From contig CBDCNP010000002.1 of assembly GCA_965219415.1 (NCBI GenBank), forward strand, positions 3,424,001 to 3,488,000: DNA of 64,000 bases. The letters run 5' to 3'. Below are positions 5,962 through 54,704 of the stretch, piece after piece. Origin of the DNA: Candidatus Marinacidobacterales bacterium. Its GTDB lineage: Bacteria > Acidobacteriota > Vicinamibacteria > Marinacidobacterales > DATDRI01. Under the pieces are notes generated by a model. That model saw only the letters and a program-made list of their open reading frames with translations. It did no database searches and had not been told where the DNA came from. Each line of letters begins with the position of its first letter. The first letter of the stretch is position 1. A program made the position numbers and the translations under genes.

Positions 5962-5970
5962 GACCCTAAG

Positions 5971-10463: not shown

Positions 10464-10894
10464 TGCGCTTGGTCGTGGACGCCAGCGTTGCGGTCAAGTG
10501 GCTGGTCGAGGAAGAGGGATCAGCATCGGCGGAGCGGCTGCTCGAAGGCGACCATGACCTGCACGCACCGCGCCTGATGGTATCTGAGATCGCCAATGCG
10601 CTGTGGCGCAAGGCCCGGCTGGGCGAGATTGGGCACGGCGAGGCCGGGGTGCTAGCTGCTGCCGTTCGTGAAATGCCGATCCGCTGGTCCGATGACGAGC
10701 TCATTTGTGCGGACGCGGTCCGCCTTGCACTTGCGCTCGACAGGCCGGTCTACGATTGCGTTTACTTGGCGCTCGCGCATCGCATCGGCGCCACGCTGGT
10801 GACGGCTGATACGCGCTTCGCGAATGCCGTGGCAGCGACCGAGCACGGCGGCGCGGTGGCGATTCTAGAGGACTTGGTGATGGGTCCAGAGTGA
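10463..10894 (+). CDS. vapC: VapC/FitB PIN-domain toxin
   Basis: LVVDASVAVKW, EIANALW, VYDCVYLALA, LVTAD acidic PIN motifs. Confidence 0.92.
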   Translation: MRLVVDASVAVKWLVEEEGSASAERLLEGDHDLHAPRLMVSEIANALWRKARLGEIGHGEAGVLAAAVREMPIRWSDDELICADAVRLALALDRPVYDCVYLALAHRIGATLVTADTRFANAVAATEHGGAVAILEDLVMGPE

Positions 10895-10942
10895 TGGCCG
10901 ACGCGGCGACGATTGATTCCGCATGCCGGAAACGGCGGAGAA

Positions 10943-11042
10943 ATGACCAAGACACCCGAACAGAGAGCACAGTCCGGCATCGATGCTAGCCTAAACGCAG
11001 CTGGTTGGTCCGTTCAGGACCGCGAGGATATCGACCTTACCG
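10943..11042 (+). pseudogene. Type I restriction enzyme R subunit, extreme N-terminus
   Basis: TPEQRAQSGIDASLNAAGWSVQD resembles EcoEI-type HsdR starts; cut at the family B end at 11043. Confidence 0.65.
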
Positions 11043-11426
11043 CGTCCTGTGCCAAAACTCGGCTGTCCATCATCATTATTTGTCCGGGACTGGACTCTAG
11101 GCCCGGACCGCCCTCGAGCACATGCTGGAGAGCGTGGTCAGCGCGCGAGAGAAGGTGCTGAGGACGAACTTCTCGGCGACCAGCCAAGTAACGCGAGCGA
11201 CCAAGCTGACTCAGGCTGCCTCTCGCCACTCGTATCGATGGTGCAATCCCGTCCTGTGCCAAAACTCGGCCCTTTTGAAATAGCCCATAAATCAGCAACT
11301 TAGAGTCTGGTTTGCGGTCGTGCCCAGGGCCGAGCACGAACAAACGACGAAATCATGCAGGCATAGTCCCGGCAGATCGGAGACCGATCAGGTTCGGGGC
11401 GCGCGGATGAATAAATAGAAGGCACA
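11043..11426 (-). mobile_element. 21-bp family B end + family E right end (11064-11249) + family B MITE type 2 (11250-11426)
   Basis: Direct matches to repeats at 16295, 30185 and 39129. Confidence 0.85.
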
Positions 11427-11490
11427 ACCCGCTAAACAACCTCGATAGAAGTAGAATCAAAGATTCTTAGACGAAAGGCGGTACAATCAA

Positions 11491-11850
11491 ATGACAACCG
11501 AGAAACGAGACGACGGCGGCCACGTGTTCCCCGCTGGCCCATCCAGGGGAATCACGCTTAGAGACTGGCTCGCCGGCCAGGCGATCGGCGGCTTGGTGGG
11601 GCGCTATGGGGGTATTCACGTCGAGAGGATGACCGAGATAGCCTATGCGATAGCCGACGCGGCAATCGAAAGGCGCAAGGCCGCGCCCGGAAGCGGAAGC
11701 GCCGAGGCAACCGAGGCCGCGGCGGCCGAGGCGACCGCCCAACAGAGAAGCCCAGTATCGGAGGAGGATATTGATAGACTCAAAGATGAACTTGCAGGCG
11801 CGGAGGCGGCGCTCCTCGAACAAGAGGAACCATCCGGCGATATCGTCTAG
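11491..11850 (+). CDS. Phage-like hypothetical protein
   Basis: DGGHVFP...GITLRDWLAGQAIGGL...AYAIADAAIERR pattern recalled from small tailed-phage proteins. Confidence 0.6.
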   Translation: MTTEKRDDGGHVFPAGPSRGITLRDWLAGQAIGGLVGRYGGIHVERMTEIAYAIADAAIERRKAAPGSGSAEATEAAAAEATAQQRSPVSEEDIDRLKDELAGAEAALLEQEEPSGDIV

Positions 11851-12057
11851 GCCCACGCCCACGGTCGGAGCCCAAGGCTCCGAGACAATCAGAATCCGGG
11901 AGTACCTCGCCACGGCTTTTAGGTTTGACATTTTTCGGGGTTGTGCGGTAGGCTTCAATTCGTTGGCTCCTTGTTAGGTTTGGCTTCCTTGGCTAGGGGT
12001 TGACATGCTCAGCACACACACTCGATTCGCCACCATCGACGAATTGATTGAGAGCCG

Positions 12058-12094
12058 CGAAAAGCCCGGCCTCTGCTGGGCTTTTCGTGTTTCT
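12058..12094. terminator. Intrinsic terminator-like hairpin, possibly bidirectional
   Basis: cgaaaagcccggc-ctct-gctgggcttttcg followed by tgtttct. Confidence 0.65.
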
Positions 12095-12167
12095 GCGTCA
12101 CTTTCATAGTCGGAGCAATCCTACCACCCGACCGAGCGGCCGGACCGGTTTTTCTTAACTCGGAACC

Positions 12168-13367
12168 CGTGAGGTCAAAATACTCATGCGGCTTCCCGAT
12201 GGTAGAAACGTAGCAACCCGCCAAGCCGTTCACGGGAGCGTACCTTGCGCTCGGACTGAGGTAACTGGTCGCTGGCTGGGAACAGCAGCAGATTCTCCTT
12301 GCCTTGATGATTCCTCTCGTGGTGATAGTAGACGACGTACTCCCTAAGCGCATGACGGAGCGACTTCTCGCCGAACAGGATGAGCTTCGAGAGACATTCC
12401 TCTTTGACTGACTTCACCCAGCGCTCCGCGAACGAGTTCAAATCCGGGCTCCGTGCGGGCAGCTTGACGGGCGCGACGCCAACCGCCTCGATGGTCCGGT
12501 GGAACGACTCGCAGAACTTCGAGTCCCGGTCGTGAATGAGATATCGGCTTGAGGACAGAAAGCCGACATCTGCCATGGTCACGTTGCGAGCCACTTGAGT
12601 CATCCACTGTTCGTTCGGATGCGGCGTGATGCCGGCGACGTGGACTCGACGGGTAGCCAGGTGCATGAAGAACAGAACGTAGTACGTCACCAACCCGCCC
12701 TGAGTCCACACTTGCGTGGTGAAGAAATCTGTCGACGCGAGCACGTCCATGTGCGAGCGGATGAACTCCCTCCACGTCGTGGTCTTCCCACGCTCTGGTG
12801 CGAGCGGAATGCCGTGGCGTTTCAGAATGTTACCGACGGTTTGGTCGGCCACTTCATGCCCGACGTTGGCTAGCGCCCCCGCAATCCGGTCGTAACCCCA
12901 GGACTTGTTCTCCTTGGCGAGACGCACCACCAGCTCTTCGATGTCGGCGTCGACCCGCGGTCGCCCTGGATACGGACGGTTCTTGGAGCTATCGAACTTC
13001 TTCGCGACAAGCCTCCGGTGCCAACCTAGGATCGTGTCGGGGTTCACGATACTCGCGATCTCATCAAGGGCTTGCTTACCCAGACGCTTTCCGAGCTCGG
13101 CCAGAGACTGCCGTTCGCCATCGGTCAGGCGCAAGCGACCCTGGATCTGATTTCGAAGAACTCGATTCTCGGCCACAAGATACTCGTTGCGCAGGAGCAA
13201 CTCCTCATCCACGGATCCTGAGATGTAGCTCAGCATGGTCTTCCAGTCCATCGCAACTCCTTCCGCTGAACTGGAATACGTATCCGACAGCGATGGCGGA
13301 TTCAAGCGGCCTTTGGGGAAGGTGCAAACTGCTGACCCGCTAGGCGTTCGAGTATTTTGACCAGACG
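12168..13367 (-). mobile_element. Family C IS481-like element, full length, adjoining a family B 5' end
   Basis: IRs cgtgaggtcaaaatactc / cgtctggtcaaaatactc; 1200 bp; near-identical to 24612 and 47960 copies. Confidence 0.9.
12184..13251 (-). CDS. Integrase core (rve) DDE transposase, family C, 355 aa
   Basis: [53 protein letters not shown]. Confidence 0.93.
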   Translation of the reverse strand: MDWKTMLSYISGSVDEELLLRNEYLVAENRVLRNQIQGRLRLTDGERQSLAELGKRLGKQALDEIASIVNPDTILGWHRRLVAKKFDSSKNRPYPGRPRVDADIEELVVRLAKENKSWGYDRIAGALANVGHEVADQTVGNILKRHGIPLAPERGKTTTWREFIRSHMDVLASTDFFTTQVWTQGGLVTYYVLFFMHLATRRVHVAGITPHPNEQWMTQVARNVTMADVGFLSSSRYLIHDRDSKFCESFHRTIEAVGVAPVKLPARSPDLNSFAERWVKSVKEECLSKLILFGEKSLRHALREYVVYYHHERNHQGKENLLLFPASDQLPQSERKVRSRERLGGLLRFYHREAA

Positions 13368-36262: not shown

Positions 36263-36636
36263 GGTGCTTCCGCCATCAAGTGTTGGTGATACGACGCTAA
36301 GACTTTACGGTACATTAAGTTACAGCTAAAATAGCGCTCGTGACCTTCGCTGCGCGCTAAATGGAGCGTAAGCGCCTTTTTTGCAAAGGAATGCGTACAC
36401 ATCATCAACAGTAAACAGCGCAAGCACCACATCTTCTTGGCGACGACGATTCCTTTGTGGTCGCGGATCGAGGTTTTCGTGCTCAGTAGGGCGCGCAACC
36501 CGGTCTCTTCCGCACCTGTACCACTGCTCGCAGCCGCGTAGCAACACTTGATGGCGGAAGCACCCTAAATGGAGCGTAAGTGCCTCTTTTGAAAAGGGAT
36601 GCATATACATCACCAACAGTAAACAGCGCAAGCACC
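36263..36636. mobile_element. IS1-derived MITE + IS1 transposase 3' end + partial MITE
   Basis: MITE 36263-36428; 36429-36564 matches 53190-53327. Confidence 0.82.
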
Positions 36637-36678
36637 ATCATGGCTGCGACTCCCTGGATTGCGAATCGCCATCGTCGA

Positions 36679-37111
36679 CCTCTGGTTCAGCAGCCTCCGG
36701 CTCAGCAACCTCTGGTTCAGCAGCCCCTGGCTCAGCAGCCTCCGGTTCAGCAGCCTCCGGTTCAGCAACCTCTGGTTCAGCAGCCCCTGGCTCAGCAGCC
36801 TCCGGTTCAGCAGCCTCTGGTTCAGCAGCCTCTGGCTCAGCAGCCTCCGGTTCAGCAGCCTCCGGTTCAGCAGCCTCCGGTTCAGCAGCCTCTGGTTCAG
36901 CAGCCTCTGGCTCAGCAGCCTCTGGCTCAGCAGCCCCTGGCTCAGCAGCCTCCGGTTCAGCAGCCTCTAGCTCAGCAGCCTCTGGCTCAGCAACCTCTGG
37001 TTCAGCAGCCTCCGGTTCAGCAGCCTCTGGCTCAGCAGCCTCTGGCTCAGTAGCCTCCGGTTCAATAGCCTCCGGTTCAGCAGCCTCCGGTTCAGCAGCC
37101 TCCGGTTCAGC
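36679..37111 (-). repeat. 15-bp tandem repeat, about 29 units, encoding (AEPEA)n at the C-terminus of an IS-truncated gene
   Basis: Unit cagcagcctcYggYt; minus frame open to stop at 36638; variation largely at synonymous positions of that frame. Confidence 0.9.
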
Positions 37112-37112
37112 A

Positions 37113-38062
37113 CGTGAGGTCAAAATACTCATGCGGCTTCCCGATGGTAGAAACGTAGCAACCCGCCAAGCCGTTCACGGGAGCGCACCTTGCGCTCGGA
37201 CTGAGGTAACTGGTCGCTGGCTGGGAACAGCAGCAGATTCTCCCCCCAAGTGGCAACGGTCCTCGTGATAGTAGCTGATGTAAGCTCGTACGAGCCGGAT
37301 GAGATGATATGCGCCGAGAACCACGACGTGCTCAAGGAGCTCGCGACGGCAGCTGCCGACCCACCGCTCCGCGGTTCCGTTTTGCCATGGGCTGCGAAAC
37401 GAAGTGCGAACGGGTTTTGTGCCCGTTGCTTTGATGAACTCGATGACCGCAGCGCTAAAGATGAAGTCGCGGTCGAAGATGAGATATTTCGGAGCAGTGT
37501 CGTAGGGAAACGCCTCACGCAGTTGCTGAATAACCCAAGCAGACGTCGGGTGGAACGTGGCGTTGAAGTGAACGATGTGCCGACGGCCGTGCTCGATGAC
37601 GAAGAAGCCGTACAGCAGCCGGAGCGACGCGGTGGGCACGGTGAACAGATCCATGGCGGCGATATCGTCTTTATGGTTGCGCAAGAAAGCCATCCATCGC
37701 TTCAGCTGGTCGGGCTCCGCAGGATGCCGCGGTAGGTATCGCGACACCGTAATCTCGGAGATGATGAAACCGAGCTTGGTGAGCTCAGCATGGATGCGTG
37801 GCGCCCCCCAGCCGTCTTGCGCCATCGTGCGGACGAGGCGGCGAATCTCGGCATCAATCCGAGGCCGACCGGGATGGCGGCGCTGCGACATCTTTGCCCA
37901 GTACCGTCGGAATCGGTCGCGATGCCAACGGGCCACGAACCTCGAAGAGCAACCCCGTCCTGTGCCAAAACTCGGCCACTTTGAAATAGACCATAAATCA
38001 GCAGCTTAGTGTCTGTGTTTGCGACCGGGCCAAGGGCCGTGGGCTTTACAATCGTCTGGCCC
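37113..38062 (-). mobile_element. Chimera: family C right end, family E core fragment, family B right end
   Basis: C end 37113-37243; E fragment 37244-37955; B end from 37956. Confidence 0.85.
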
Positions 38063-38147: not shown

Positions 38148-39128
38148 TCAGCTGCCGGAAGAGAGAGCAAGCCGGTTTCCCGCATCGCCGAGCCATTCAT
38201 CCAGTTTCGACCACCGCCGCCGTCCCGAGACATTGCGCACGGCGATGGCCACAGCCTTCTTCTGGCCGACCAGCACAACCAGCCGTTTGCCGCGTGTCAC
38301 GCCGGTGTAGAGCAGATTCCGCTGCAACATAACGTAGTGCTGGGTCAGAACGGGGATGACGACGGCAGGATACTCCGAACCCTGGCTCTTGTGAATGGTT
38401 GCAGCGTATGCCGGAACCAGCGTGTCAAGCTCGCCGAAGCCATAGGCGACGGCGCGCCCGTCGAAATGCGCGGTCAGCTCGCCGTCATCGGGATCGACAT
38501 CGTCGATATAGCCGATGTCGCCGTTATAAACCTCCTTGTCATAATTGTTTTCGATCTGCATCACCTTGTCGCCGGGCGCGAAGGTCCAGCCGAAGCGCTC
38601 GACCTTGCGCTCTCCGGCTGGATTGAGGGCGGCCTGCAGCTCGATGTTGAGCGAGCGGGCGCCGACGCCGCCGCGGTTCATCGGGCACAGCACCTGGATG
38701 TCGCGGACCGGATCGAGCCCGAAGCGCTTTGGGATGCGCGTCTTCACCAATTCGATGATTCGCGACACCGCGGTTTCCGGGTTGTCCGCCTGCACGAAGT
38801 AGAAGTCGCTGTCGGCCTCGGGCTTCGAAAGATTGGGAATGAAACCCCGGTTGATCCCGTGCGCGCTGGTAACGATCCGGCTTCGCGCGGCCTGACGGAA
38901 AATCTCGGTCAGCCGCACGACCGAGACGGCACCGGAGGCGATGATGCTGGCCAGTACCTGGCCCGGACCGACCGAGGGCAGTTGGTCGATATCTCCCACG
39001 ATCAGTAGCGCGGCAGTGTCGGGGACCGCCTTCAGCAAGGCCTGCATCAGCATGACGTCCACCATCGAGGTCTCGTCAACGACCAGCAGGCCGCAATCGA
39101 GAGGGTTGTTGCCGTTGCGCTTGAACCC
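38148..39128 (-). pseudogene. recD2: RecD2-like SF1 helicase, C-terminal fragment
   Basis: [53 protein letters not shown]; Walker A lost at the B end. Confidence 0.92.
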
Positions 39129-39391
39129 CGTCCTGTGCCAAAACTCAGCCCTTTTGAAATAGCCCATAAATCAGCAACTTAGAGTCTGTGTTTGCGGCCG
39201 TGCCCAGGGCCGAGCGCGAACAAACGACGAAATCATGCAGGCATAGTCCCGGCAGATCGGAGACCGATCAGGTTCGGGGCGCGCGGATGAATAAATAGAA
39301 GGCACAGGCGGAGTTTCGCCGTCTTCGGCCCGGAATTCAAGCGGAGCGTAAGTCCTTGATTTCGTGGGCGGAGCAGTTTTGACGATGCACA
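39129..39391 (-). mobile_element. Family B MITE type 2 (39129-39306) plus family E left end
   Basis: Matches 30185-30362 and 17488-17573. Confidence 0.85.
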
Positions 39392-39402: not shown

Positions 39403-41151
39403 TCAGTTCGAGTTGACGAGTGAGGCCTTACCGGCATTGCCCGGGTAGTACCTGTCATGGTTCCCGGGTCCTGATTCCCGATCGGTGGACATGCCAGTCG
39501 CTGGTTCCAAGAAGTTATTCCTCGTATCACCGCGGGTCTCGGTGAGCTCCGACAGTCCTTGTTCGATGACCGATCGTAGCCAGGCGGTGAACTCTGGATG
39601 CGGGGCAAATCCAGTCCCGTACCGATACTTCAGACCATCGAGGTAACGCGTGGCCGAGCCCCGCCCGGTAGTGCGTACCGGGAGAACGAGCGCAATGCCG
39701 TCGTCTTTGGATGCAGCCTCCACATCAGCACGAATGGCCGCCACCGCGTCTCGCCGTTTATCGGGCCAGTCTTCCCTCCAAGTGTGGTAGCGGATCGCTC
39801 GGAAACCGTCCCAGTGCTCGCCGATATCCCGCGCCAAGCTCGCGAGCAGTTCGAGCCAGCGGTCGTTGACATCGTCGTTGCCGCTTCCATGCCCAACCAA
39901 CACGATGGTCTCTCGGTTGGGGGCGGTACTGATCTCGTCGACCCGATCGACAAGTGCCCGAGCGAGGTGCTGGCTAGCAGCTACACCTCCCGCAGTATGG
40001 AAGACAAGGCCGCTACGGACCCTTCGCGGAAAACTGCGATAATCGGGCCTCAGACCCAGCACGTATTCCGCCTTGGTTCGAAAACTGGACTCCATGAAGA
40101 ATATGCGCACCACCAATGCCGCCCGAACTCCCCGCACCTCGAGTTTTCGCACCGCGTTCTCGATGAGCAGAGGGTCGACCATGCTAAAGGCATCCTCAGT
40201 TACATACTCGTCACGAATAGGGGAGATTCCGCGACGCATGGTCTCGTTCCAATTGTAATCACTGCCGTGCGGCACCAGGATGACGCCGATGTCCTCTCGG
40301 CCGAGCGGCAAGGCGTGGTTCACGCTTTTTTGCAGCCAGTGGCCGACGTTCGCGTGCGGCAACACCCCCCGTCCGTCGGACACGATACCGGAGAATTCAC
40401 GCATTCTTCTTTTCAGGTAGCTCCACTCCGACATCATGGTCGTGTATTTCATTCCAAGACTGAACGGGACGACCAGAGTACGTTTCTCGCCGGTGCAGAC
40501 GGATTCCAGATCCTTCATCATTCCCTCGATGGATGCGCTGCGAGCCTCCTCGGTCTCGGCACCGTCATGGATGACGTAGAGGCGGCCGCCTGCTAGACCG
40601 TACTTCTTGGCCGCTCGATCCACCAGCGGTTCGAGGTCCTCCCGGATACCGGACTCTGCAGTGCTGGAGTTAGCGCCCGCCGTTATCACGACGAGTTGCT
40701 CGTTGCCGACATGCGAGGGGGCGAGCGCTTCGACGCGGTCAAAGAGGATTTCCTCCGCCAGGTAGCTTGCTCCCAGTGGAATGCCGAAGGAAACAAGCGG
40801 TCCTCCGAAAGCGTCGAGTACCCCTTGAGCCTTCTTGTAGAGCGCGTCGTGCTTGGACAAGAAAAGGGGCAGGACCACCACCCTCGCGGTCTGCCCTTCC
40901 GTTGGAAGAGACTTCCACACGTTGCGTAGGTTCTCCTCAGCCCGCTCTTGCGTGACGAACGCTAGTTGTGCGTCATCGACAGAGGTCGCGAAGTCCGCAA
41001 AAACTTCGCGGACTTCCTCGTTACCGAGAAAGCCTCGATCAGGTGCGATCACTAGAAATGCCGTGCGAGTGCCAGCCGTAGCAGTCGGTAAGCCTAGGCC
41101 TAACAACGGAACAACGATGATGAGCACTCTTAACGTTGTGGGTATACGCAA
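39403..41151 (-). CDS. Secreted protein with two tandem CbiX/SirB chelatase-like modules
   Basis: TTG start with RBS aaggag; signal peptide; module 2 GVILVPHGS...IVLVGHGSG; module 1 degenerate (FLVIAPDRG, VVVLPLFLSKH). Confidence 0.78.
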   Translation of the reverse strand: MRIPTTLRVLIIVVPLLGLGLPTATAGTRTAFLVIAPDRGFLGNEEVREVFADFATSVDDAQLAFVTQERAEENLRNVWKSLPTEGQTARVVVLPLFLSKHDALYKKAQGVLDAFGGPLVSFGIPLGASYLAEEILFDRVEALAPSHVGNEQLVVITAGANSSTAESGIREDLEPLVDRAAKKYGLAGGRLYVIHDGAETEEARSASIEGMMKDLESVCTGEKRTLVVPFSLGMKYTTMMSEWSYLKRRMREFSGIVSDGRGVLPHANVGHWLQKSVNHALPLGREDIGVILVPHGSDYNWNETMRRGISPIRDEYVTEDAFSMVDPLLIENAVRKLEVRGVRAALVVRIFFMESSFRTKAEYVLGLRPDYRSFPRRVRSGLVFHTAGGVAASQHLARALVDRVDEISTAPNRETIVLVGHGSGNDDVNDRWLELLASLARDIGEHWDGFRAIRYHTWREDWPDKRRDAVAAIRADVEAASKDDGIALVLPVRTTGRGSATRYLDGLKYRYGTGFAPHPEFTAWLRSVIEQGLSELTETRGDTRNNFLEPATGMSTDRESGPGNHDRYYPGNAGKASLVNSN

Positions 41152-41199
41152 TTTTGCGTCTCCTTGAATGTTATGCCTACGGCATGCCTCGGGCACTGC

Positions 41200-41340
41200 C
41201 TTGCTTTGCCTCGAGTACCGCCATCAGGTTCATTTTTGGTGCGTTGGTGATCCGGTGGCGCGGAAAGAACCGATTGAAAAAGGTCCGACGCCGCATCCAG
41301 CTCCCCTCGACGCGCCATGGTGTTGGCCAAATTCCCGCTT
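41200..41340 (-). pseudogene. Possible TPR remnant
   Basis: LANTMARRGELDAASDLFQSVL resembles one TPR; no intact ORF. Confidence 0.3.
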
Positions 41341-41489
41341 GAGTGTCAGAATGACGCAATTCACGCGCAGGTGGAAAGGTCGGTCCGGCAGCACTGATAC
41401 ACGGCCAATTGCGAACCGCTGGCTAGCGTTTCCGATTCGTGATGGCGATTGCATGCGTGTTCCCTTTCACTTTGGCTCGTCAGTCGTGG

Positions 41490-44400
41490 CTACCAGTCGT
41501 ATGCCAGTGACCCGATGACACTGATCCCCGGGCTCGAATACCGATCGATCACCGGGTCGTTCGCCTGGCGTCCCCGCACGTTCCACCACTCGAAGTACGT
41601 CGCGTCCGTCAGGTTGAGCAGACCAAGACGAAACGTGAGGGCCTCTGCGAGCGAGACGTGGCTCACCAGGTCGACGACCTGGTAGGCGTCCGGCGCGAAC
41701 TGGTTTTCATCAGGGGCACCCTGATACGACTCGACCAACCTGACCGACAGCTCCGCACCCCAACGGCCGGACGGTTGGAGGTACTGGATACCGAGCACGC
41801 CTTCGCTCGGCGCGATGGAACCAAGCGGCGTCTCGGCCGCGAGCGGCGGGACCGCAGCGTCCTTTGAGATCTCAACGCCGTCGATTCTCGCGTAGCTCCC
41901 GCGAATCATCACGCGGTTGGTCACGTACGCCTCGCCGCGCAGCTCGACACCCTTGATCTCGGCCTGTTCGAGGTTCCGGCTCTGGAATTCGAGCAGCCGG
42001 GTTCTTGGATTAAAACCGATCGTCGTCAGGTCGATGAAGTCATCGAACCGGTTCGAGAAGACGGTCACGCCGAAGCTCGCGCGGTCGAACGCGGTCCGCA
42101 CACCGACCTCGATGTTGTCGCTCGTCTCCGCCCTGAGCTTGGGATTGGGAAGCGTGACGTAGCCTCCCTGTGGGTTCGTGAAGCCGGTGTTGACGGTGCT
42201 GTATGGTGGCGCCCGGAACCCGCTGGCGTACTGCGCGTGGACGGTCACCACATCCGTCAATCGCGCCGACACACCAACTTTCGGCGACACGGCGCTGTAG
42301 GAGAAGTCGATCGGCTCCGGGTTCAGGCTTGCAAGAAAGATCGGGTCGCTCTGGTTGGCGTCGAGCGAGAAGTGATCGTAACGCACCCCCGGCACGAGCG
42401 TGACGCGGCCGAACTGGAGCTCCGCCTGGACGTACGTACCGGACTCGGCGACGTCGCTCTCGGGAAAGTACTTGGTCGGGAAGATCAGGCTGGTCGGCAC
42501 GGGCGCCGCCGTCCGAACGTTGAGCTCGCTCCGGTCGCGCAGGATGTCGAAGGTGTCGGTCTGGTAGCTGGCGCCGAACGTAACTAGTACACCGTTACTC
42601 GAACTACCCAGCCACTTCTGACCCCGAACCGATCCGCCGTAGCCAATCTGCTCGAAGTCGACCGTTTCGTGGCGCGTCGAATGAGTCGGCGGCCCGAAGC
42701 CGAACGTCATACGCTCACGATCGACGACCTGTAGTGTGTCGTTGTGCTGGCGGTAGATACGCCACGACAGTTGATCGAGACCGGCGCGGTCGACTAGCGT
42801 GTGATCGAGCGACAGGCGCTGGCGCCCCTGCGTGTCAACAGCAACCGAGTCCAACGTGTCATAAAGAAACGGGCCGAGCTGCGTCAATCCCATGTCCGAG
42901 AACCATGTCGTTTCGACATGGGTGTCGTAGACTTCCGCTGCCACGCGCCACATATTGCCGGGCGAGGCTGTGAAGACGAGCTTGCCCAGTAGTTGCGTGC
43001 CCCATACGTCTTGCGGATTCGCCGCGGTACGGGTGGCATCACGGGTTTTTACCGTTCCTTTATTAAAGACCTCGTTCCCGCGGTTGAAGCTGGCGAAGAG
43101 CAATGCTTGGAGCCGTTCGGTACCCCCGGCCAGAGTGAGGTTCCCACTGATATCCCCAGCGCGACCATTCCAGGTCGTCTTGGCGCCGATGTGGAACCGC
43201 CTGCCGCGGAGGTAGTCGCCCGGATCCTTGGTGAACAGCGACACCACGCCGCCGAGGGCGTCGCTGCCGTAAAGCGCCGAGTTGGCATTCCGCACGATCT
43301 CGACGGATTTCAACACATCGAGATCGAGCGCCATCTGATGCATGCTGAACGGCCCGAAGTCGAACTGCTCCGCTGTCTGAATGCCGTCCACCTGCGTCAT
43401 CACGCGATTCCTTCCGATGCCGCGGATGTTGAATCCGTTAAGACCAAGACGGGTCACATTGTTTTCGACGTACACCCCGGGTTCGTACTTGACGAGATCC
43501 GACAGGTTCTCGAATAGCCTCGCCTGAATGACCTCGCTGTCGACGACCGTCACCATGCCAGGGATCTCCCGTACTGGCGACGGCCGGAGCGTCGCGGTCA
43601 CGGTCACGGAATCGAAGAAAGTCGGCCAATCATCTGTCGACTGAGCAGCGTCGGTTTCGGCGGCAGCGCCCGGTTGGTCGGTCACCTGCCGATCGGTCGA
43701 CTGCCGGCTGGCTGCATCTTGCTGTGCCGATATATGCGCGACCTGGGACATGACCCAGTCAGCGATCCGGCTGTCCGGGAGCACGGGTCGACCGTCCCAG
43801 AGGTAATCCAATCCAGTGAGTACGTTGGGTACCTGGTCGACGACGCGTCCCGGCCCGAGCAGGAGCGGCACAACGACGACCCGCCCCGACGCTGCACGGT
43901 TGGCCACCGAGTGTCTGAGCTCCGAGAGCGCCTGGTCTTTGACCGGTGTGGGCGCATCATCTCGCAAGAGGCGGACGTCGACCTCCTTAAACGGAACGAG
44001 AGACCGGATTTGGACGCCAAGTTCTCGGATCACGTCCATCCACCGGTCTGCGTCTGCGACGCCGTTCGGCCCGTGTGCCACAATGACGAGGCTTTCCGTG
44101 GATGGGTCACGACTGAGCGCACGCGCTCGGTCGGACAAGATGTCAGCGAGGATCGGATCTGCATCAAGCGCCGGCGTGACGCCGACAACGTCAGCAGGCC
44201 CGTGCAGCGACGTGAGTTTCATCCGTTCGGAGCCCGGGTAATCGTCACGAAGGCGGCCAATGAAGCGGACCTGTTCGTAGTGCGAGCTGTAAGAAGATAC
44301 CAGGAGCGGCACGACGACAATCCGCTGGACACCAGCCACGACCAGTTCGTCGTACGCCTCCTGCGGTGTGCGGTTCTTCGCACCCATCAGGTACGCCACT

Positions 44401-44582
44401 TTAGATGGTATGTGTTGTTGAATAATCGTCACCACGGCCTCGACGTTGGCGTTCCACGCCGCCGTCGAGCCATGAGCCACGACCAACACGCCGAGTTGCT
44501 CATCAGCCGCCGCAGCGAGCGTCGAGCCGACGGGTGAGAGAAAGAGGATCGAGCACAATAGAAGCCGAGCGATATGAGTCAT
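41490..44582 (-). CDS. TonB-dependent heme/hemoglobin-type receptor with N-terminal CbiX-like domain
   Basis: Signal peptide; VLVVAHGS, VVPLLVSSYSSH, VIVAHGP; TonB box DSVTVTAT; plug YGSDALGGVV; FRAP and NPKL motifs; terminal Trp. Confidence 0.9.
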   Translation of the reverse strand: MTHIARLLLCSILFLSPVGSTLAAAADEQLGVLVVAHGSTAAWNANVEAVVTIIQQHIPSKVAYLMGAKNRTPQEAYDELVVAGVQRIVVVPLLVSSYSSHYEQVRFIGRLRDDYPGSERMKLTSLHGPADVVGVTPALDADPILADILSDRARALSRDPSTESLVIVAHGPNGVADADRWMDVIRELGVQIRSLVPFKEVDVRLLRDDAPTPVKDQALSELRHSVANRAASGRVVVVPLLLGPGRVVDQVPNVLTGLDYLWDGRPVLPDSRIADWVMSQVAHISAQQDAASRQSTDRQVTDQPGAAAETDAAQSTDDWPTFFDSVTVTATLRPSPVREIPGMVTVVDSEVIQARLFENLSDLVKYEPGVYVENNVTRLGLNGFNIRGIGRNRVMTQVDGIQTAEQFDFGPFSMHQMALDLDVLKSVEIVRNANSALYGSDALGGVVSLFTKDPGDYLRGRRFHIGAKTTWNGRAGDISGNLTLAGGTERLQALLFASFNRGNEVFNKGTVKTRDATRTAANPQDVWGTQLLGKLVFTASPGNMWRVAAEVYDTHVETTWFSDMGLTQLGPFLYDTLDSVAVDTQGRQRLSLDHTLVDRAGLDQLSWRIYRQHNDTLQVVDRERMTFGFGPPTHSTRHETVDFEQIGYGGSVRGQKWLGSSSNGVLVTFGASYQTDTFDILRDRSELNVRTAAPVPTSLIFPTKYFPESDVAESGTYVQAELQFGRVTLVPGVRYDHFSLDANQSDPIFLASLNPEPIDFSYSAVSPKVGVSARLTDVVTVHAQYASGFRAPPYSTVNTGFTNPQGGYVTLPNPKLRAETSDNIEVGVRTAFDRASFGVTVFSNRFDDFIDLTTIGFNPRTRLLEFQSRNLEQAEIKGVELRGEAYVTNRVMIRGSYARIDGVEISKDAAVPPLAAETPLGSIAPSEGVLGIQYLQPSGRWGAELSVRLVESYQGAPDENQFAPDAYQVVDLVSHVSLAEALTFRLGLLNLTDATYFEWWNVRGRQANDPVIDRYSSPGISVIGSLAYDW

Positions 44583-44693
44583 GGCACTCCTCTTAGTTGC
44601 GCGCCACACCCTCTCGCCGCTAAAATGCAGTGAGCGAGCGCTGTCGCGCGTCTTCACGTGTGATTAGGTCTTGTGGACCGTGCGTTCGTGCAA

Positions 44694-44732
44694 GCTCGCC
44701 GGGTGTGGCAACATCCGGCGAGCGTTTTTTTT
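44694..44732 (+). terminator. Intrinsic terminator, antisense to the receptor leader
   Basis: 13-bp stem gctcgccgggtgt / acatccggcgagc followed by T8. Confidence 0.75.
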
Positions 44733-44837
44733 GCCTCAGAGTTTAGAACACTTCATCAGCCTCTCCACCGTTCGTTTGTAACAGGCGACGTCTCTCTGTA
44801 GAACGTGTGCCGGCACCTGGAGCAACTGGAGAATGTT

Positions 44838-44895
44838 GAAACTGAATTTCATTACCACTTTCAGGATCCTATATCTGACTAAGTCCGTCGGTCAA
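44838..44895 (-). promoter_or_regulatory. Sigma-70-like promoter with Fur box
   Basis: Minus strand TTGACC-N18-TAGGAT (44895-44866); GGTAATGAAATTCAGTTTC (44856-44838) matches 14/19 of GATAATGATAATCATTATC. Confidence 0.65.
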
Positions 44896-44903
44896 GTAAA
44901 ATC

Positions 44904-45069
44904 GGTGCTTCCGCCATTAAGTGTTGGTGAGATGACATTAAGATTTTACGGTGCATTAAGTTACAGGCAAAATAGCGCTCGTCACCTTCGCTGCGCGCTA
45001 AATAGAGCGTAAGCGACTCCTTTGCAATGGGATACGTACACATCACCAACAGTAAACAGCGCAAGCACC
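44904..45069. mobile_element. IS1-derived MITE
   Basis: Reverse-complement match to 4983-5148. Confidence 0.85.
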
Positions 45070-45806
45070 GACGGTCTGGACCTCGCCAGCCTGCGGCGGG
45101 CCTGGGAGCAGACCTTTGGGTCCGCTCCGCCAAGCTCGCTCTCACGCGCTCTCCTGCGCCGCGTTCTTGCGTACGAACGCCAATGCCGGACCCATGGGGG
45201 GCATTCGGCCGCAACCCGACGCGCTCTGGCCGCCATGGCGAACGGCACACCAAAACACTCTGCTCCCGCAGGGTCCGTTTCTGCCGGCACCCATCTCATT
45301 CGTGAGTGGAATGGCCGCACCTACCAGGTCGAGGTACTCGATAACGGCTATCGGTTCGACGGCAAAACCTACCCGTCCCTCACCACCGTCACAAAGCGAA
45401 TCACCGGCACACACTGGTCAGGACCACGCTTTTTCGGTCTGACGCCCAAGCGCAAGGCCTGACATGACGAAAATCCGCTGCGCCATCTATACCCGAAAGA
45501 GCGCTGAAGAGGGTCTCGAACAGGATTTCAACTCCCTCGATGCACAGCGGGAGGCCTGCACCGCATATGTCGCGAGCCACAAGGCGGAGGACTGGGTGCT
45601 GCTGCCAACTGTCTACGAGGACGCGGGGATCTCGGGAGGAACCCTGGAGCGCCCGGGCCTACAGCGCTTGCTCGCCGACATCGATGCCGGTCTCGTCGAG
45701 CAGATTGTGGTCTACAAGGTCGACCGGCTGACCCGTTCCCTCTCCGACTTTGCGAAGCTCGTCGAACGGCTCGAGGCGGCCGGCGCGGTTTTTGTCTCGG
45801 TGACCC
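45070..45806 (+). pseudogene. DUF2924 + serine recombinase pair, truncated at both ends
   Basis: GTHLIREWNG...ITGTHWSGPRFFGL; RCAIYTRKS, VYKVDRLTRS; near-identical to 58590-59325. Confidence 0.88.
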
Positions 45807-45827
45807 CGTCCTGTGCCAAAACTCGGC

Positions 45828-45921
45828 TGTGATCCGCAAAAAAGAAAACCGGCCAGAAGCAGCCGACTATGGTAGGTCTAACCCGCGCAATCAACACCGG
45901 CTCGACTTCTTGCGGAGCACA
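45828..45921. mobile_element. Family F 94-bp MITE
   Basis: IRs tgtgatccgcaa / ttgcggagcaca; single ends also near 3501, 6687, 22784, 28847. Confidence 0.65.
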
Positions 45922-46266: not shown

Positions 46267-47749
46267 GTGACGTCCAAGGCACCAGATGCGTCGTATGGCC
46301 TGCGCCAGCGGACCGGCTGGGTGGTTGGACCCACGGCCCTGCTGCTCACGCTGCTGCTGCCACCCCCGCCGGGTCTCAGCGTCGAAGGGTGGCTGACGGC
46401 TGGCGCTGCCATGCTGATGGCCACCTTCTGGATCGCCGAGTCGATCCCGATTCCGGCGACGGCGTTGCTGCCGCTCGTGCTGTTTCCCGCGCTCAGACTC
46501 GGGAACATTACCGAGACGGCAGCCCCGTTCGCCAACCCGATCATCTTCCTGCTCCTTGGCGGGTTCATCCTCGCGCTCGCGATGCAGCGGTGGAATCTCC
46601 ACCGTCGCGTGGCCATCGGACTGATCGGCATGCTCGGCACGAAGCCGTCGTCGATCATCGCGGGGTTCCTGTTGAGCTCGGCGCTCGTGAGCATGTGGGT
46701 CAGCAACACGGCGACATCGCTGATGATGCTGCCGATCGCCTTGTCGGTCGTGCAGTTACTGCCGGACCCGGCCCACCAGACGCGAGAGGTGCGGGGGTTC
46801 AGCACGGCGCTGCTCCTGTCCATCGCCTATGGTGCGACGACGGGAGGAATGGGCACGCTGATCGGCACCCCGCCAAACGCGCTCCTGGTTGGGTACATCG
46901 CGAATGTCTACGACGTGACCATCGGCTTCGGTCAGTGGATGTTGCTCGGCGTCCCGGTAGTGCTCGTCGCCCTACCCGCGGTGTACCTCGTGCTGACCAG
47001 AATCATGTTCACCCTCGATGCTCGCGAACTTCCGGGTATGGCCGACTTGATCACGGCTGAAAAGGCCGCGCAAGGTCGAATGGCCCGCGGAGAGCTCGCC
47101 GTGGCCGTGGTGTTCGTGCTGACGGCGGGCTGCTGGGTGTTCCGGCCGCTCATCGCCGGCGCCGTGCCACTGGTCACCGACACGACCATCGCGATGGCCG
47201 GCGCGCTCCTGCTCTTCATGGTCCCGGTGGACCTCCGAAGCGGCGACTTCGTGATGAACTGGGAGACCACCAAAAGAGCTGCCCTGGGGCGTGCTCCTGC
47301 TCTTCGGCGGAGGACTCAGCTTGGCAGGCAACATCGAGCGGCATGGCCTGGCGACCTATCTCGGCAACCTCGCGATGGGTCTCGGAGACGTGCCGTTGAT
47401 ATTCATGCTCTGCGCGATCTGCTTCGGGGTGCTGCTGCTGACCGAGTTGACGAGCAACACCGCCACCGCCGCCACGTTCCTGCCGATCGGCGGGGCGCTG
47501 GCGGTGAGCCTTGGTCACAACCCTCTGCTGCTCACGATTCCGATCGCGCTCGCGGCGAACAGCTCGTACATGCTTCCGGTTGGCACGCCCCCGAACGCGA
47601 TCATCTACGGCAGCGGCCTCATCACGCTGCCGCAGATGGCGAGGGCCGGGTTCCTGTTGAACATCTTGCTAGTTCCCATCGTGGTCGCGTTGCTGCTGCT
47701 TCTCGGGCCGATGATTTTCGGCATCGAGTTGGGCTTCGTACCTGACTGA
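46267..47749 (+). pseudogene. DASS/SLC13 sodium:dicarboxylate-sulfate symporter with one frameshift
   Basis: SMWVSNTAT, GTLIGTPPN, TELTSNTAT, LPVGTPPNAI; frame switch near 47280 (mutation or sequencing error). Confidence 0.88.
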
Positions 47750-47959: not shown

Positions 47960-49158
47960 CGTGAGGTCAAAATACTCATGCGGCTTCCCGATGGTAGAAA
48001 CGTAGCAACCCGCCAAGCCGTTCACGGGAGCGCACCTTGCGCTCGGACTGAGGTAACTGGTCGCTGGCTGGGAACAGCAGCAGATTCTCCTTGCCTTGAT
48101 GATTCCTCTCATGATGATAGTAGACGACGTACTCCCTAAGCGCATGACGGAGCGACTTCTCGCCGAACAGGATGAGCTTCGAGAGACATTCCTCTTTGAC
48201 TGACTTCACCCAGCGCTCCGCGAACGAGTTCAAATCCGGGCTCCGTGCGGGCAGCTTGACGGGCGCGACGCCAACCGCCTCGATGGTCCGGTGGAACGAC
48301 TCGCAGAACTTCGAGTCCCGGTCGTGAATGAGGTATCGGCTCGATGACAGAAAGCCGACATCTGCCATGGTCACGTTGCGAGCCACTTGAGTCATCCACT
48401 GTTCGTTCGGATGCGGCGTGATGCCGGCGACGTGGACTCGACGGGTAGCCAGGTGCATGAAGAACAGAACGTAGTACGTCACCAACCCGCCCTGAGTCCA
48501 CACTTGCGTGGTGAAGAAATCTGTCGCCGCGAGCACGTCCATGTGCGAGCGGATGAATTCCCTCCACGTCGTGTTCTTCCGACGCTCTGGTGCGAGCGGA
48601 ATGCCGTGGCGTTTCAGAATGTTACCGACGGTTTGGTCGGCCACTTCATGCCCAACGTTGGCTAGCGCCCCTGCAATCCGGTCGTAACCCCAGGACTTGT
48701 TCTCCTTGGCGAGACGCACTACCAGCTCTTCGATGTCGGCGTCGATCCGCGGTCGCCCTGGATACGGACGGTTCTCGGAGCTGTCGAACTTCTTCGCGAC
48801 AAGCCTCCGGTGCCAACCTAGGATCGTGTCGGGGTTCACGATACTCGCGATCTCATCAAGGGCTTGCTTACCCAGACGCTTTCCGAGCTCGGCCAGAGAC
48901 CGCCGTTCGCCATCGGTCAGGCGCAAGCGACCCTGGAGATGATTTCGAAGAACTCGATTCTCGGCCACAAGATACTCGTTGCGCAGGAGCAATTCCTCAT
49001 CCACGGATCCTGAGATGTAGCTCAGCATGGTCTTCCAGTCCATCGCAACTCCTTCCGCTGAACTGGAATACGTATCCGACAGCGATGGCGGATTCAAGCG
49101 GCCTTTGGAAAGGTGCAAACTGCTGACCCGCTGGGCGTTCGAGTATTTTGACCAGACG
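47960..49158 (-). mobile_element. Family C IS481-like element, full length
   Basis: 1199 bp between IRs; transposase 47976-49043. Confidence 0.9.
47976..49043 (-). CDS. Integrase core (rve) DDE transposase, family C
   Basis: Near-identical to the other two copies. Confidence 0.93.
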   Translation of the reverse strand: MDWKTMLSYISGSVDEELLLRNEYLVAENRVLRNHLQGRLRLTDGERRSLAELGKRLGKQALDEIASIVNPDTILGWHRRLVAKKFDSSENRPYPGRPRIDADIEELVVRLAKENKSWGYDRIAGALANVGHEVADQTVGNILKRHGIPLAPERRKNTTWREFIRSHMDVLAATDFFTTQVWTQGGLVTYYVLFFMHLATRRVHVAGITPHPNEQWMTQVARNVTMADVGFLSSSRYLIHDRDSKFCESFHRTIEAVGVAPVKLPARSPDLNSFAERWVKSVKEECLSKLILFGEKSLRHALREYVVYYHHERNHQGKENLLLFPASDQLPQSERKVRSRERLGGLLRFYHREAA

Positions 49159-51656
49159 GGCTCGAGAAGATCGAGCATCGAGGTCCACTGCGAGAAGACG
49201 AGGGACTTGTGGCCCTCGGAAGCCGCGGTATCGAGGGAAGACATGAGCAGCTCGGTCTTGGACGACGTCGAAGCGCTCTGGCCCGGCACGAGAGCCGGGT
49301 GGCAGGCCGCTTGCCGCAACCGCAGAAGCGCCTCGAGCGCCGCGAGGACACCCCCTTTCGACTTGAGCTTCCGCAGCACGTCCCTTCGAGCCGCCAAACG
49401 CACGGTTTCGTAGACTTCTCTCTCGCTCGCCTCAAGCTCGGCATGGAGCGTAACCTCGGTTCGGGGTGGAAGCTCCGGAGCGACTTCACTCTTGAGCCGC
49501 CTCAGAAAGAACGGCCGGATGCGCTCGCGAAGACGCTCCAGGGGCTCTTCCTCTCCCCTCCCGATCGGACGCACGTATCGCTCCTCGAAATCGGAGAGTC
49601 CTCCGAGCAACCCGGGGGCGAGAAAGTGCATCTGGCTCCAGAGATCGACGAGGCGGTTCTCGATGGGAGTCCCCGTCAAGCTCACGCGAAACGCGGCGTC
49701 GAGCCTGTAAGCCGACTGGGCGAGCTGGCTCTCGGGATTCTTGATGGCTTGCCCCTCGTCGAGCACGACCACGTTCCAGGCGACGGATGAGAAGACCTCC
49801 CGGTCTTGGCGCAGGAGCGCGTGGCTCGTAATCGTCAAATCCGCCGCCGCGTCAAGCTTTCGATGCGGGCCGTGATAGAGCGAAACGGCTAGCTCAGGGC
49901 GAAACCGGCGCGCTTCGGAGATCCAGTTCGGAAGCACGCTGGTAGGCGCGGCGACGAGACTCCTCCCTTCGAGAGCGCAAAGAGCCTGGAGCGTCTTCCC
50001 CAACCCCATGTCGTCCGCTAGAAGCGCCCCGAGCCGCGCGTTTCGAAGAAAGACCAGCCAGTCGACACCAGTTCGCTGATAGTCTCGAAGCTTTTTCCGA
50101 AGCTCTTCCGCGAGGCGAGCTTCGGGCAGCCCTCCGAAATCCTTCGCCAGAACACTCAGCTCGTCGAAGCCCGCGGGGATCGGAGCATCGAGCGATTCCG
50201 CGAGGCGAGCGAGATCGGGGAGTGCGGCTCTGGGCAGCGCAGCTCTCGCCTCGCGTGCGGCGAGCAGATCGGCAACGCGAGCACCATGGACGTCGAGCCA
50301 GTCGAGCGGCAGCGGGGCGTAACCACCGCCCCAGAGTGCCACGAGCGAATGCCCCTCCCTGAAGGCCCGCATTACACCGCGCGGATCGGCCCTCTTGCCT
50401 GACGACTCGAAGGCGATCTCGAAGTCTTCGTCACCAATCGAGAGACGAGGCCTGAGCTCGGGATGCAAACGGAAAGCCTCGTAGTCCGTGCCTTCGATCG
50501 CTCCCTCGAAACGTTCGAGCTTCGTGACAAGCTCGATGGCTTCCTCTGTCGATAGTTCGAGGCCGCGGCCGGCGGGAATCCCGAGCGCCCAGGCCGCACG
50601 TTCCTCGGCGGCACGCTCCCCTGCCTCGTCCCGGAGCGGGACATCGCCGCCGAGAGAGACGAGTCTGCCATCTTCCACACGAGCTCTCGGTGGATCTCCG
50701 TAGACGATCCGAAGCAAGACATAGAGCCGATCGCCGTCGCGTCGGCAGAAAATCGAAGGGCGGGCTTGCTCGCGAGATTCGCCCGGGAGATTCCGCGTCC
50801 GGATTTCGAGCGCGACACGCTCTCGCAGAGATGGCAAGACTTCGCTCACGAGCGTTGCCACTTCGTCCGATCGGTAGACGCGCCCTCGAGTGAGCTCGTC
50901 CCGCTCGCGCCCCGTAAGACGCGGTTCAACCTCGGGACGTACCGCCTCACCTAGGAGAACGAGACCGTTCGCGAAGCGCTCGTCAAAAACGGGCTCCACG
51001 AGCCGCAGGACAAATCCACCCTCCGCGTCCTCGACACGCACGGAAGGCATGACGGGATTGGGATCCGCCACGACCCGTTTGCCGTCGAGAGTCACGGCGA
51101 CGCGAGAAAGAGCTCGCACGACGTCCGCCGCGACCTCGCGAGCAAGCACGTTCTCCCCAAAGTTGCCCTTAAGTGTTTTCTCGATCTTCAAATCCCGGGG
51201 TGTCGCATCGAACCGAGGTCCTCGGAAGGTCCCAGAGGCGATCCGGTCAAGGGGCATCTCGATCACATGAAAGCCGGCGTCGTCCGTCACCCCACGCGTG
51301 AGAGTGAGCCCCTGGGGTGACCTCGACAGATGATATTCAAGGTTTCGCGAGCCATTCTTGCCGAGCGTTCCTTGTCGTAGGGCAATGACGACGGCCGCCA
51401 CGTGCTCGCAGACAACGAGAGGGCTCTCGCAGTCGCACTCCCACTCCGAGTCCTCCGGGAACAGGGCAACGGTCGGAGTGAGCGGTGCCCCCTGTACGGC
51501 GACGCGTGCGAGGGTCTCGTCAACGTCCGACCTTTCGATCGTGACAGCTCCACGACGGGCGAGGGTCACCCCGATGGACCAAGCCTCTGGCGAGCAGCCT
51601 TCGCGGATGCGCGTGAAGAGCTCTGTCACCTCGTGGCCGCGAGCTTTTGGACCCAT
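49159..51656 (-). pseudogene. SWIM zinc finger SNF2 helicase, 3' truncated and in frame with the family C transposase
   Basis: CDC...CEH SWIM, LADDMGLGKT, LDEGQAIKN, LTGTPIENR, LVFSQW; motifs V-VI missing. Confidence 0.9.
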
Positions 51657-52002
51657 ATCACGGCGAGCCCGAAGCCAATATGTAGTCGATGATGGACTCC
51701 AGCACATCGACCCAACAGTTCGAGGCGTCGTGTCCATTGACGAAACGGCTCGGCGTGCCCACGAAGATGTCCCTGAACGTCAGGCACCACGTAGCCAGCC
51801 CAGCCTGCATCGCCACCAGAACTGCGTCTCTCAAAATCAAGCTCAAACTCTAGCACGCGAAGACGATAGCGGCCTGTTGGTCACGCTGGATCCAACCAGC
51901 GATGGCGACAACTAACAAGGTCAAGGGCTGGATCGGCGTGCTCATGACCGAGGATTCTAGCTCCTATTGGCCAACCAAGCGTAGACACGTTTATTCCGAA
52001 AC

Positions 52003-54306: not shown

Positions 54307-54704
54307 TGTGCCTTCTATTTATTCATCCGCGCGCACGGAACTTGATTAGTCTCCAGTCTACCGGCACCATGCCGGCATGATGTCGTCGTTTGTTCGCGCT
54401 CTCGTCTCTGCCTTCAAGGCTCCTCGCGAGCTGGCTCTCGAGAATGTCGCTCTTCGGAGCAGCTCGCCGTGCTCCGCCGTTCGGTGAAACGGCCGCGGCT
54501 CTCGAATGTCGACCGCGAGTTTTGGGTGCTGTTGCGGGTGCTTCCGCCATTAAAGTGTTGGTGAGATGACGCTTAAGACTTTACGCTGCATTAAATTACA
54601 GACAAAATAGCGCTCGCGACCTTCGCCGCGCGCTAAATGGAACGTAAGCGCTTTTTTTGCAAAGGGATACGTACACATCACTAACAGCAAACAGCGCAAG
54701 CACC
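54307..54704. mobile_element. Family B left end/degraded 5' fragment plus IS1-derived MITE (54537-54704)
   Basis: Direct repeat matches. Confidence 0.82.

Follow-up and report, generated by a model that had tools for sequence, protein, structure and literature searches.

A chelatase-fold domain fused to a TonB-dependent heme receptor in a Candidatus Marinacidobacterales bacterium

Why should a TonB-dependent heme receptor carry, on the same polypeptide, a domain with the fold of a chelatase? The question is raised by a gene of a Candidatus Marinacidobacterales bacterium (Acidobacteriota, Vicinamibacteria; assembly GCA_965219415.1), located in a stretch of 64,000 nucleotides of contig CBDCNP010000002.1 (positions 3,424,001 to 3,488,000), which is referred to below as the window and whose numbering is used throughout. 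The fused gene, on the minus strand at 41490..44582, encodes 1030 amino acids followed by a stop. The fused receptor-chelatase design is recurrent across relatives, and the chelatase-fold domain probably catches the imported heme or strips its iron.

The full open reading frame (ORF) covers 41490..44657 on the minus strand and would yield 1055 amino acids from a GTG; the ATG at 44582, from which 1030 are obtained, is invariant in 7 of 7 aligned relatives and is preceded by an AGGAG-like, purine-rich stretch. The protein is composed, in this order, of a signal peptide, a two-lobed CbiX/SirB-fold domain, a linker, a TonB box, a plug and a barrel: Pfam detects CbiX (41.9 bits, cut-off 22), Plug and TonB_dep_Rec_b-barrel. 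The CbiX part features the motifs VAHGS (residues 35–39), SSYSSH (96–101) and VAHGP (168–172); the receptor part features the TonB box DSVTVTATL (324–332), FRAP (789–792), Tyr808 within QGGYVT, and NPKL (813–816). An earlier reading of this DNA, made from the letters and their translations (the sequence-only reading), had described one uninterrupted 1030-residue frame with these motifs, and each of them was located. The signal peptide, about residues 1–25 (44508..44582, minus strand), is read from sequence alone: MTHIAR and a hydrophobic run are followed by AAA. The structure model is disordered there (pLDDT below 50 for residues 1–11 and 13–25), and the protein has no lipobox, the sole Cys of the signal region following LLL.

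The fusion is genuine, not an assembly artefact, and has homologues. A search with residues 1–330 returned 47 proteins: 45 of them combine CbiX with Plug, and in 42 the barrel is present too. Those with names belong to Luteitalea, Vicinamibacteraceae and other Acidobacteria, where they are labelled merely "TonB-dependent receptor"; the genome records of the close relatives read "Candidatus Marinacidobacterales" and Vicinamibacterales. Of 201 genomes of the class, the source genome (G000) included, 42 match the family at E <= 1e-10, and open frames of about 950–1065 amino acids occur at ten places in 9 of the 201.

The two parts are joined by a flexible linker, rich in Q, A, T and D (residues 301–322, 43617..43682, minus strand; pLDDT 49–57 over residues 301–320, at the end of the model). 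Its length is polymorphic: a segment of 60 nt (20 amino acids; window 43636–43695) may be missing in frame, the short form joining 43635 to 43696. Contigs covering 43300–44900 were obtained from four public runs, belonging to four studies. Both linker forms occur in public runs; the short one is present in all four of these, as well as in the related loci L001–L004, and no stop is seen in any of the four runs. The sequence-only reading had noted the absence of an insertion sequence (IS) scar at the fusion point, and none is there. A misjoin of two genes, which might be feared in a repeat-rich metagenome assembly with an estimated contamination of 8.45%, has a negligible probability, since the frame is uninterrupted in independent assemblies of several genera and short-read contigs from three runs (X1, X2, X4) span 43594–43770, and with it the linker, with 0–1 differences.

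The domain that precedes the linker (residues 28–300, 43683..44501, minus strand) is predicted to be a two-lobed class II chelatase fold of the CbiX/SirB type. Pfam CbiX matches it at 41.9 to 46.8 bits, and 46 of 49 aligned family members are matched as well. In the AlphaFold2 model, built on 42 sequences, two strand-helix repeats are seen (pLDDT 87.1, pTM 0.81), with disorder only over residues 1–25 and beyond about residue 300. A single-sequence search of the PDB with the domain gave just a chance match (YfdX, E 0.78), and profile and fold searches were needed. A profile of the domain and 48 stand-alone relatives finds CfbA (E 5e-9) and SirB (E ~1e-6), whose first catalytic His is aligned with His37. 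In the fold search, the top Foldseek matches are class II chelatases only. By a second structural aligner, residues 29–291 of the domain superpose on SirB 5zt7 with Z 20.7 (rmsd 2.7 Å, 234 residues), while coproporphyrin ferrochelatases (CpfC) score about Z 19, periplasmic CbiK of Desulfovibrio vulgaris (2xvx) Z 17.6, FetB of Porphyromonas gingivalis (9b86) Z 17.0 (rmsd 3.2 Å, 222 residues), and CbiX Z 16.5.

Conservation was evaluated on 42 aligned proteins, the window domain and 41 receptor-type relatives. Invariant residues are His37, Trp43-Asn44, Ser96-Ser97, His170-Gly-Pro, Trp181 and Arg207-Asp-Asp-Ala-Pro (RDDAP); His101 is retained in at least 90% of the set. This residue follows the third strand, like the second catalytic His, from which it is one residue off in the CfbA/SirB profile alignment, and is conserved only in the receptor-fused clade.

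In receptors of this kind the part N-terminal to the TonB box is periplasmic; placed there, the domain should be periplasmic as well, in agreement with the sequence-only reading. SirB and the long CbiX sirohydrochlorin chelatases are cytoplasmic biosynthetic enzymes. Bacillus subtilis SirB (5ZT7) is the best structural match, and is related by profile and by the first catalytic His, but the identity is only 15–18%, and the window domain differs by its signal peptide and its tether to a receptor. Because of this signal peptide, of the position before a TonB box and of the absence of biosynthetic neighbours in the window, the domain is classed as chelatase-fold and not as a biosynthetic chelatase.

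The receptor part begins with the TonB box (43587..43613, minus strand): here start the matches to TIGR01786 and TIGR01785, and here the N-terminal strand of PhuR is aligned. It is followed by the plug (residues 337–446, 43245..43574, minus strand; Pfam Plug E 5e-22), which contains His415 in FSMHQM, and by the beta-barrel (residues 447–1030, 41493..43244, minus strand; Pfam E 2e-52). The NCBIfam families matched by residues 323–1030 are those of heme/hemoglobin/transferrin receptors: TIGR01786 scores 344.2 bits (cut-off 323.75), TIGR01785 317.6 bits, barely above its cut-off of 316.85. The best solved relative by sequence is PhuR of Pseudomonas aeruginosa (8the_A), aligned at full length with E 7e-85. 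By these matches the barrel is a PhuR-type heme receptor, and the heme type assigned to it by the sequence-only reading is borne out.

The same reading had pointed to a Tyr, instead of a His, between the barrel motifs FRAP (42207–42218) and NPKL (42135–42146, both on the minus strand). The Tyr is indeed there (Tyr808, within 42153–42170), and no His is found in the loop between the two motifs, as is also the case for PhuR, but this is no oddity. The HMMER alignment, where an offset was applied to residue pairing because the chain numbering of 8the_A equals the paper numbering plus 13, pairs Tyr808 with PhuR Tyr529 and His415 with PhuR His124; PhuR Tyr519 corresponds to an Asn here. As stated in passages of the cryo-EM report on PhuR (bioRxiv 10.1101/2023.08.01.551527), Tyr529 holds the heme iron, on a loop between FRTP (510–513) and PNPNL (533–537), and Tyr519 and the plug residue His124 are named as heme ligands by an earlier biochemical study. 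The loop Tyr is present also in four close fused relatives, whose sequences were inspected, and in 6 of 6 related receptors whose loop matched a simple pattern (11 were scanned, and in the other 5 the pattern failed). Since it aligns with the PhuR ligand and recurs in relatives, a Tyr is the usual residue of this receptor subtype. PhuR (8THE) thus shares with the fused protein the TonB box, plug, barrel, FRAP-type and NPxL motifs, the Tyr at the position of Tyr529 and the plug His at that of His124; unlike PhuR, which in the alignment features no chelatase-fold domain before the TonB box, the fused protein has about 320 extra residues there.

The N-terminal domain belongs to a large exported family. 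An exhaustive phmmer search produced 939 cluster representatives at E <= 0.001, 576 at E <= 1e-10 and 93 at E <= 1e-30. Among the best 150 members listed, the majority have 280–360 amino acids, and the aligned stand-alone ones start with hydrophobic, signal-peptide-like N-termini; some members are tandem proteins of about 550–590 amino acids, others are receptor fusions. The family is labelled only "CbiX domain" or "sirohydrochlorin chelatase", and 9 of the 10 stand-alone clusters looked up are nameless. In the source genome (8.05 Mb, 96% complete), members are found at this locus only.

The genomic surroundings of the family were analyzed in 20 regions of 20 kb, each around a stand-alone or tandem gene and hand-picked from the 42 positive genomes of the class. 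At 12 of the 20 loci the gene immediately upstream, in the same orientation, encodes a TonB receptor; at 2 a receptor gene is adjacent and convergent, at 2 more one lies 3–7 kb off, and at 4 none was found by the queries used. At L045, L046, L047, L064 and L061 the upstream receptor is 51–76% identical to the window barrel. In one genus (L051, L052 and L058), a nearly complete set of heme-biosynthesis genes forms an operon that opens with a receptor gene and a stand-alone CbiX-like gene; in L051 (~1–12831) these two precede ferrochelatase, hemA, hemC, hemB, hemL, a response regulator, hemE and a radical-SAM gene, and the order is the same in the other two. A second receptor and a PepSY_TM gene are located upstream of the L051 operon.

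Other members are joined to different partners. In P0097, a metagenomic protein of 525 amino acids, an FTR1/EfeU-type iron-permease part with REGFE, a signal-peptide-like helix and a CbiX-like domain follow each other in one frame; this joining, a single example, hints at iron handling. The module is also contained, often in 2–4 copies, in nine large proteins (P0068, P0069, P0074, P0096, P0138, P0164, P0173, P0072, P0079), bearing SLH, copper amine oxidase N-terminal, dockerin, cadherin-like, FmdE or NosD domains. They look like surface proteins of organisms without an outer membrane.

How the fusion arose was approached by a FastTree analysis, without bootstraps, of 134 of 203 domain segments, in which every third of 22 window-type rows and every second of 110 stand-alone rows were kept. 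The domain tree implies at least 5 changes between the fused and the unfused state. The window clade (7 rows, support 100) is nested in a clade of 36 rows (support 98), 35 of which are receptor fusions; in 28 of these the barrel is of another kind, with similar scores for the B12 and the heme receptor models, far below both cut-offs (P0021: TIGR01779 185 bits, TIGR01785 183 bits). The nearest relatives of the window barrel are unfused (65–77% identical), while the nearest relatives of the window domain are joined to barrels of the other type (52–60% identical). For this reason, and as far as a quick tree can tell, the domain seems to have been transferred between barrel types.

Precedents for the association, as opposed to the fusion, are available. 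FetB is a lipoprotein encoded together with an ABC transporter. In the Iht system of P. gingivalis, as in the window, a TonB receptor (IhtA) is paired with an exported partner of class II chelatase fold (IhtB/FetB, 9B86), which in P. gingivalis binds heme. The two are, however, separate proteins, whereas the window domain is covalently fused within one polypeptide and lacks a lipobox, its sequence family is CbiX and not CbiK, and no transporter gene lies in its vicinity. The periplasmic CbiK of D. vulgaris (2XVX, 2XVZ) is likewise an exported class II chelatase, close in fold to the window domain (the Z 17.6 reported above), but is a free, untethered protein, and we know of no receptor linkage for it. 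N-terminal extensions of some TonB receptors are known to signal. These transducers and extended receptors (STN, CarboxypepD_reg) also feature an extra folded domain N-terminal to the TonB box or plug, with another fold and presumed role; the window domain is not STN according to Pfam, and some relatives combine CbiX, CarboxypepD_reg and Plug (P0052). In passages of a study of FetB (PMC13065792), the protein is presented as CbiK-like and located in the outer membrane, binding heme and acting as a chelatase with Co and Mn, and the periplasmic CbiK of D. vulgaris is said, citing Lobo 2008, to bind metalated porphyrins. A full-text literature search found no description of a chelatase-fold domain fused to a TonB receptor, and the sequence-only reading had known of none. 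That reading had also spoken of a candidate new uptake system: the fusion is real, but "new system" is overstated, given the precedent of a receptor with a separate CbiK-like protein and the stand-alone relatives beside receptors.

What, then, may the domain do? The reading tentatively favored here is that of a periplasmic heme acceptor, or relay, joined to its importer; we infer both the ligand and its hand-off to the domain. As in PhuR, Tyr808 on the loop between FRAP and NPKL would bind heme at the cell surface, and TonB energy would draw it through the barrel. At the periplasmic exit it would be caught by the tethered domain, a complete class II chelatase fold on a flexible linker of about 20–40 residues, in a cleft lined by the conserved His37/His101 and His170; the domain would then hold the heme and relay it to an inner-membrane step. 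This reading draws on the heme-type barrel, the chelatase fold, the conserved and recurrent fusion, the proximity of family members to TonB receptors and, in one genus, to heme-biosynthesis genes, and the precedent of FetB.

A number of observations weigh against such a relay. The retained canonical metal-site histidines are no less suited to an enzyme than to a passive carrier, and the second His position shifts in the wider family, where many members read SSHSE, not SSxSxH. Among the 38 window ORFs scanned, neither an inner-membrane transporter nor TonB/ExbBD nor a heme-degrading gene is found near the fused gene. The heme-operon context is limited to the single genus mentioned above. Finally, no match to Heme_oxygenase or HemS, the only two heme-degrading families searched (IsdG, HugZ and ChuW were not), is present in the source genome at its 96% completeness, so that a relay would require another route to use the heme. 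As to transport, no ABC transporter genes occur among the 38 ORFs, and two strong FecCD-type permeases are encoded elsewhere in the genome.

In the main rival reading the tethered domain is an enzyme that acts in the periplasm on the heme brought in, either taking out its iron, as a reverse chelatase, or swapping its metal; the iron would then enter via a ferrous/ferric permease, and the porphyrin would be released or reused. This is possible, if rather unlikely. It would agree with the conserved canonical histidines, His37 aligning with the CfbA/SirB catalytic His and His101 lying after the third strand, and with the PepSY_TM reductase-like genes found near the receptor pair at 2 loci. The missing Heme_oxygenase and HemS matches point in the same direction, but only within that two-family search, and so does the joining of P0097 to an FTR1-type iron-permease part, but this is one metagenomic protein of 32 scanned. 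The two FecCD-type permeases, on the other hand, could import intact heme. For FetB, the same passages of PMC13065792 report catalysis of metal insertion, but no reverse activity on haemin and no insertion of Fe or Ni. Specifically, the domain could be a periplasmic heme dechelatase, by which iron would be stripped at the importer exit, with no ring cleavage and no oxygen, and with no need for the porphyrin to reach the cytoplasm; this form, too, is judged conceivable but on the unlikely side.

It is improbable that the substrate is not heme but a corrinoid, another metalloporphyrin or a free metal (Co, Ni, Zn), with the domain acting as a tethered periplasmic binding protein. The suggestion comes from the other fused barrels, with their nearly equal and low B12 and heme scores, from an unfused orthologue (L012) beside a class II B12-dependent ribonucleotide reductase, from distant members joined to FmdE or NosD and, in P0047, to a ZinT-family domain (precomputed Pfam list), and from weaker fold matches of the domain to periplasmic binding proteins. 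The window barrel, however, passes the heme-family cut-offs and retains the Tyr ligand of PhuR, heme-biosynthesis synteny is found in one genus, and no cobalamin riboswitch is detected in the window or in 7 related loci (134 kb).

Still fainter is the prospect of a domain with no part in handling the substrate, be it regulatory (for example a ligand sensor, as in FecA-type transducers), chaperone-like or vestigial. Signalling extensions are known, as mentioned above, and the cassette lies amid IS debris and looks mobile; yet Pfam finds no STN domain, no sigma/anti-sigma gene is present among the 38 window ORFs scanned, and the domain is strongly conserved over 42 fusions. In addition, stand-alone family genes adjoin receptors in many genomes, which argues for a working partner rather than a relic.

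Downstream of the fused receptor the sequence-only reading had placed a second exported CbiX-like gene. The gene is present (39403..41196, minus strand; likely start TTG at 41151) and encodes an exported tandem double copy of the chelatase fold, but is no constant partner: following a fused receptor, it is found only in the closest relatives L001, L002 and L004, is cut in L006 and is absent from L003, L005, L007 and L008. Its model (pLDDT 82.6) is composed of two tandem chelatase-like repeats. Residues 301–546 are 25.7% identical to the domain of the receptor (tblastn E 1e-10) and match the family profile with E 4e-50; for the first half the profile gives E 1e-6. The first module has lost the AHG histidine, reading APDRG where the family has AHG, while the second retains PHGS, GHGS and REDWP and clusters, in the tree, with its counterparts in other tandem proteins, among them the one after the receptor in L061. 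The last ~42 amino acids are disordered and window-specific: they correspond to the stretch where the window departs from the 541-residue orthologue of L001.

Upstream of the fused gene, seven regions from Marinacidobacterales and Vicinamibacterales relatives were aligned. A predicted promoter-like pair, TTGACC (44890–44895) and TATAGGAT (44866–44873), together 44866..44895 on the minus strand, is conserved in 7 of 7. Just past it lies the Fur-like site GGTAATGAAATTCAGTTTC (44838–44856, minus strand), with 14 of 19 consensus positions. The sequence-only reading had assigned a Fur box to the start region: the site exists, but it is weak by itself and, at about 255 nt from the ATG, does not overlap the start codon. 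It is the sole match with at least 14 of 19 positions in the window; in first-order Markov shuffles such matches average 0.37 per window, at least one occurring in 7 of 30, and the site alone is therefore not beyond chance. No match to the classical Fur consensus was obtained with up to 3 mismatches.

The site appears as a degraded copy of a conserved palindrome, AATAATGAGAC-TGA-GTCTCATTATT, which relatives carry at the same position and which is perfect in L005 and L021. Its half-sites AATAATGAGAC and GTCTCATTATT resemble Fur half-sites, but are 9 nt apart, versus 3 for Fur. At two more distant receptor loci, different Fur-like palindromes are found, upstream of the receptor in L061 and across the receptor start codon in L012; one FUR-family gene is present in the genome. 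A regulon sharing this operator was considered and rejected: AATGA-N9-TCATT has 13 matches genome-wide, nearly all in copies of one IS element, and a relaxed consensus likewise gives 13, 10 of them in copies of one IS element.

Between site and gene runs a conserved leader of about 255 nt (44583..44837, minus strand), taken to be non-coding because relatives carry indels there. The alignments of relatives reveal an invariant 9-bp hairpin at 44694–44723, and the last predicted helix covers the start codon. RNAalifold, run on 8 leader sequences, predicts 54 pairs, 6 of them with compensatory changes; the covariation term is +1.17, and a structured leader RNA accordingly has no net support. Rfam yields no known RNA, cobalamin riboswitch included, in the window at gathering level, in 44400–45200 at E up to 5, or in the 7 related loci. 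A GC-rich leader of another kind, with hairpins GGGCGTCC...GGACGCCC and CCGGCG...CGCCGG, is shared by L045 and L047 ahead of the start of their unfused receptor, and is by eye unrelated to that of the window.

The two-gene cassette is flanked by a 166-nt multi-copy repeat: the copy at 44904..45069 has a direct partner, 89% identical, at 36263–36428, 8641 nt apart. Further copies are located at ~4983–5152 and 54537–54704, identities among copies being 87–94%, and the repeat is found near the cassette in relatives' loci as well. It looks like a MITE-type element, with which the cassette may move. Both flanks of the fused gene consist of transposase debris, and no conserved neighbours are found past the second gene in the closest relatives, where the flanks are transposases. 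Two cassette copies (L001, L002) are located on the chromosome of one relative, about 82 kb apart, and in L007 the fused gene adjoins plasmid-type RepA and ParA genes.

Other features of the window are as follows. A 15-nt unit is tandemly repeated over a long array at 36589–37218, in 29 or more overlapping register copies, and several frames of the array are open (PQQ/LVQQ or AEPE repeats); a 131-nt stretch, 37113–37243, is identical to 47960–48090. A frame for an SNF2-type helicase (47976–51737) runs into an IS transposase (HTH_32 + rve_3). Transposases and pieces of genes are strewn over the entire window: fragments are recognized of a RecD-like helicase (38148–39167), of a resolvase N-terminus (45464–45832) and of a DASS permease (46267–47745), the latter apparently frameshifted.

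The meaning of the fusion goes beyond this locus. How bacteria lacking a heme oxygenase free the iron of heme is unsettled, and so is the fate of heme just after its exit from a TonB receptor: a receptor with a candidate handler built in is a natural test system, contained in one polypeptide. The CbiX-fold domain represents a new kind of N-terminal extension of TonB receptors and, in the manner of a Rosetta stone, the fusion directly links the TonB-dependent import of heme-like compounds with exported chelatase-like proteins that form a large family without a name. If the domain were a dechelatase, this wider family would be a general class of extracytoplasmic enzymes taking iron from heme or swapping metals, a class that would take in the genes standing alone beside receptors as well as the tandem proteins and those joined to FTR1 or to a cell-wall anchor.

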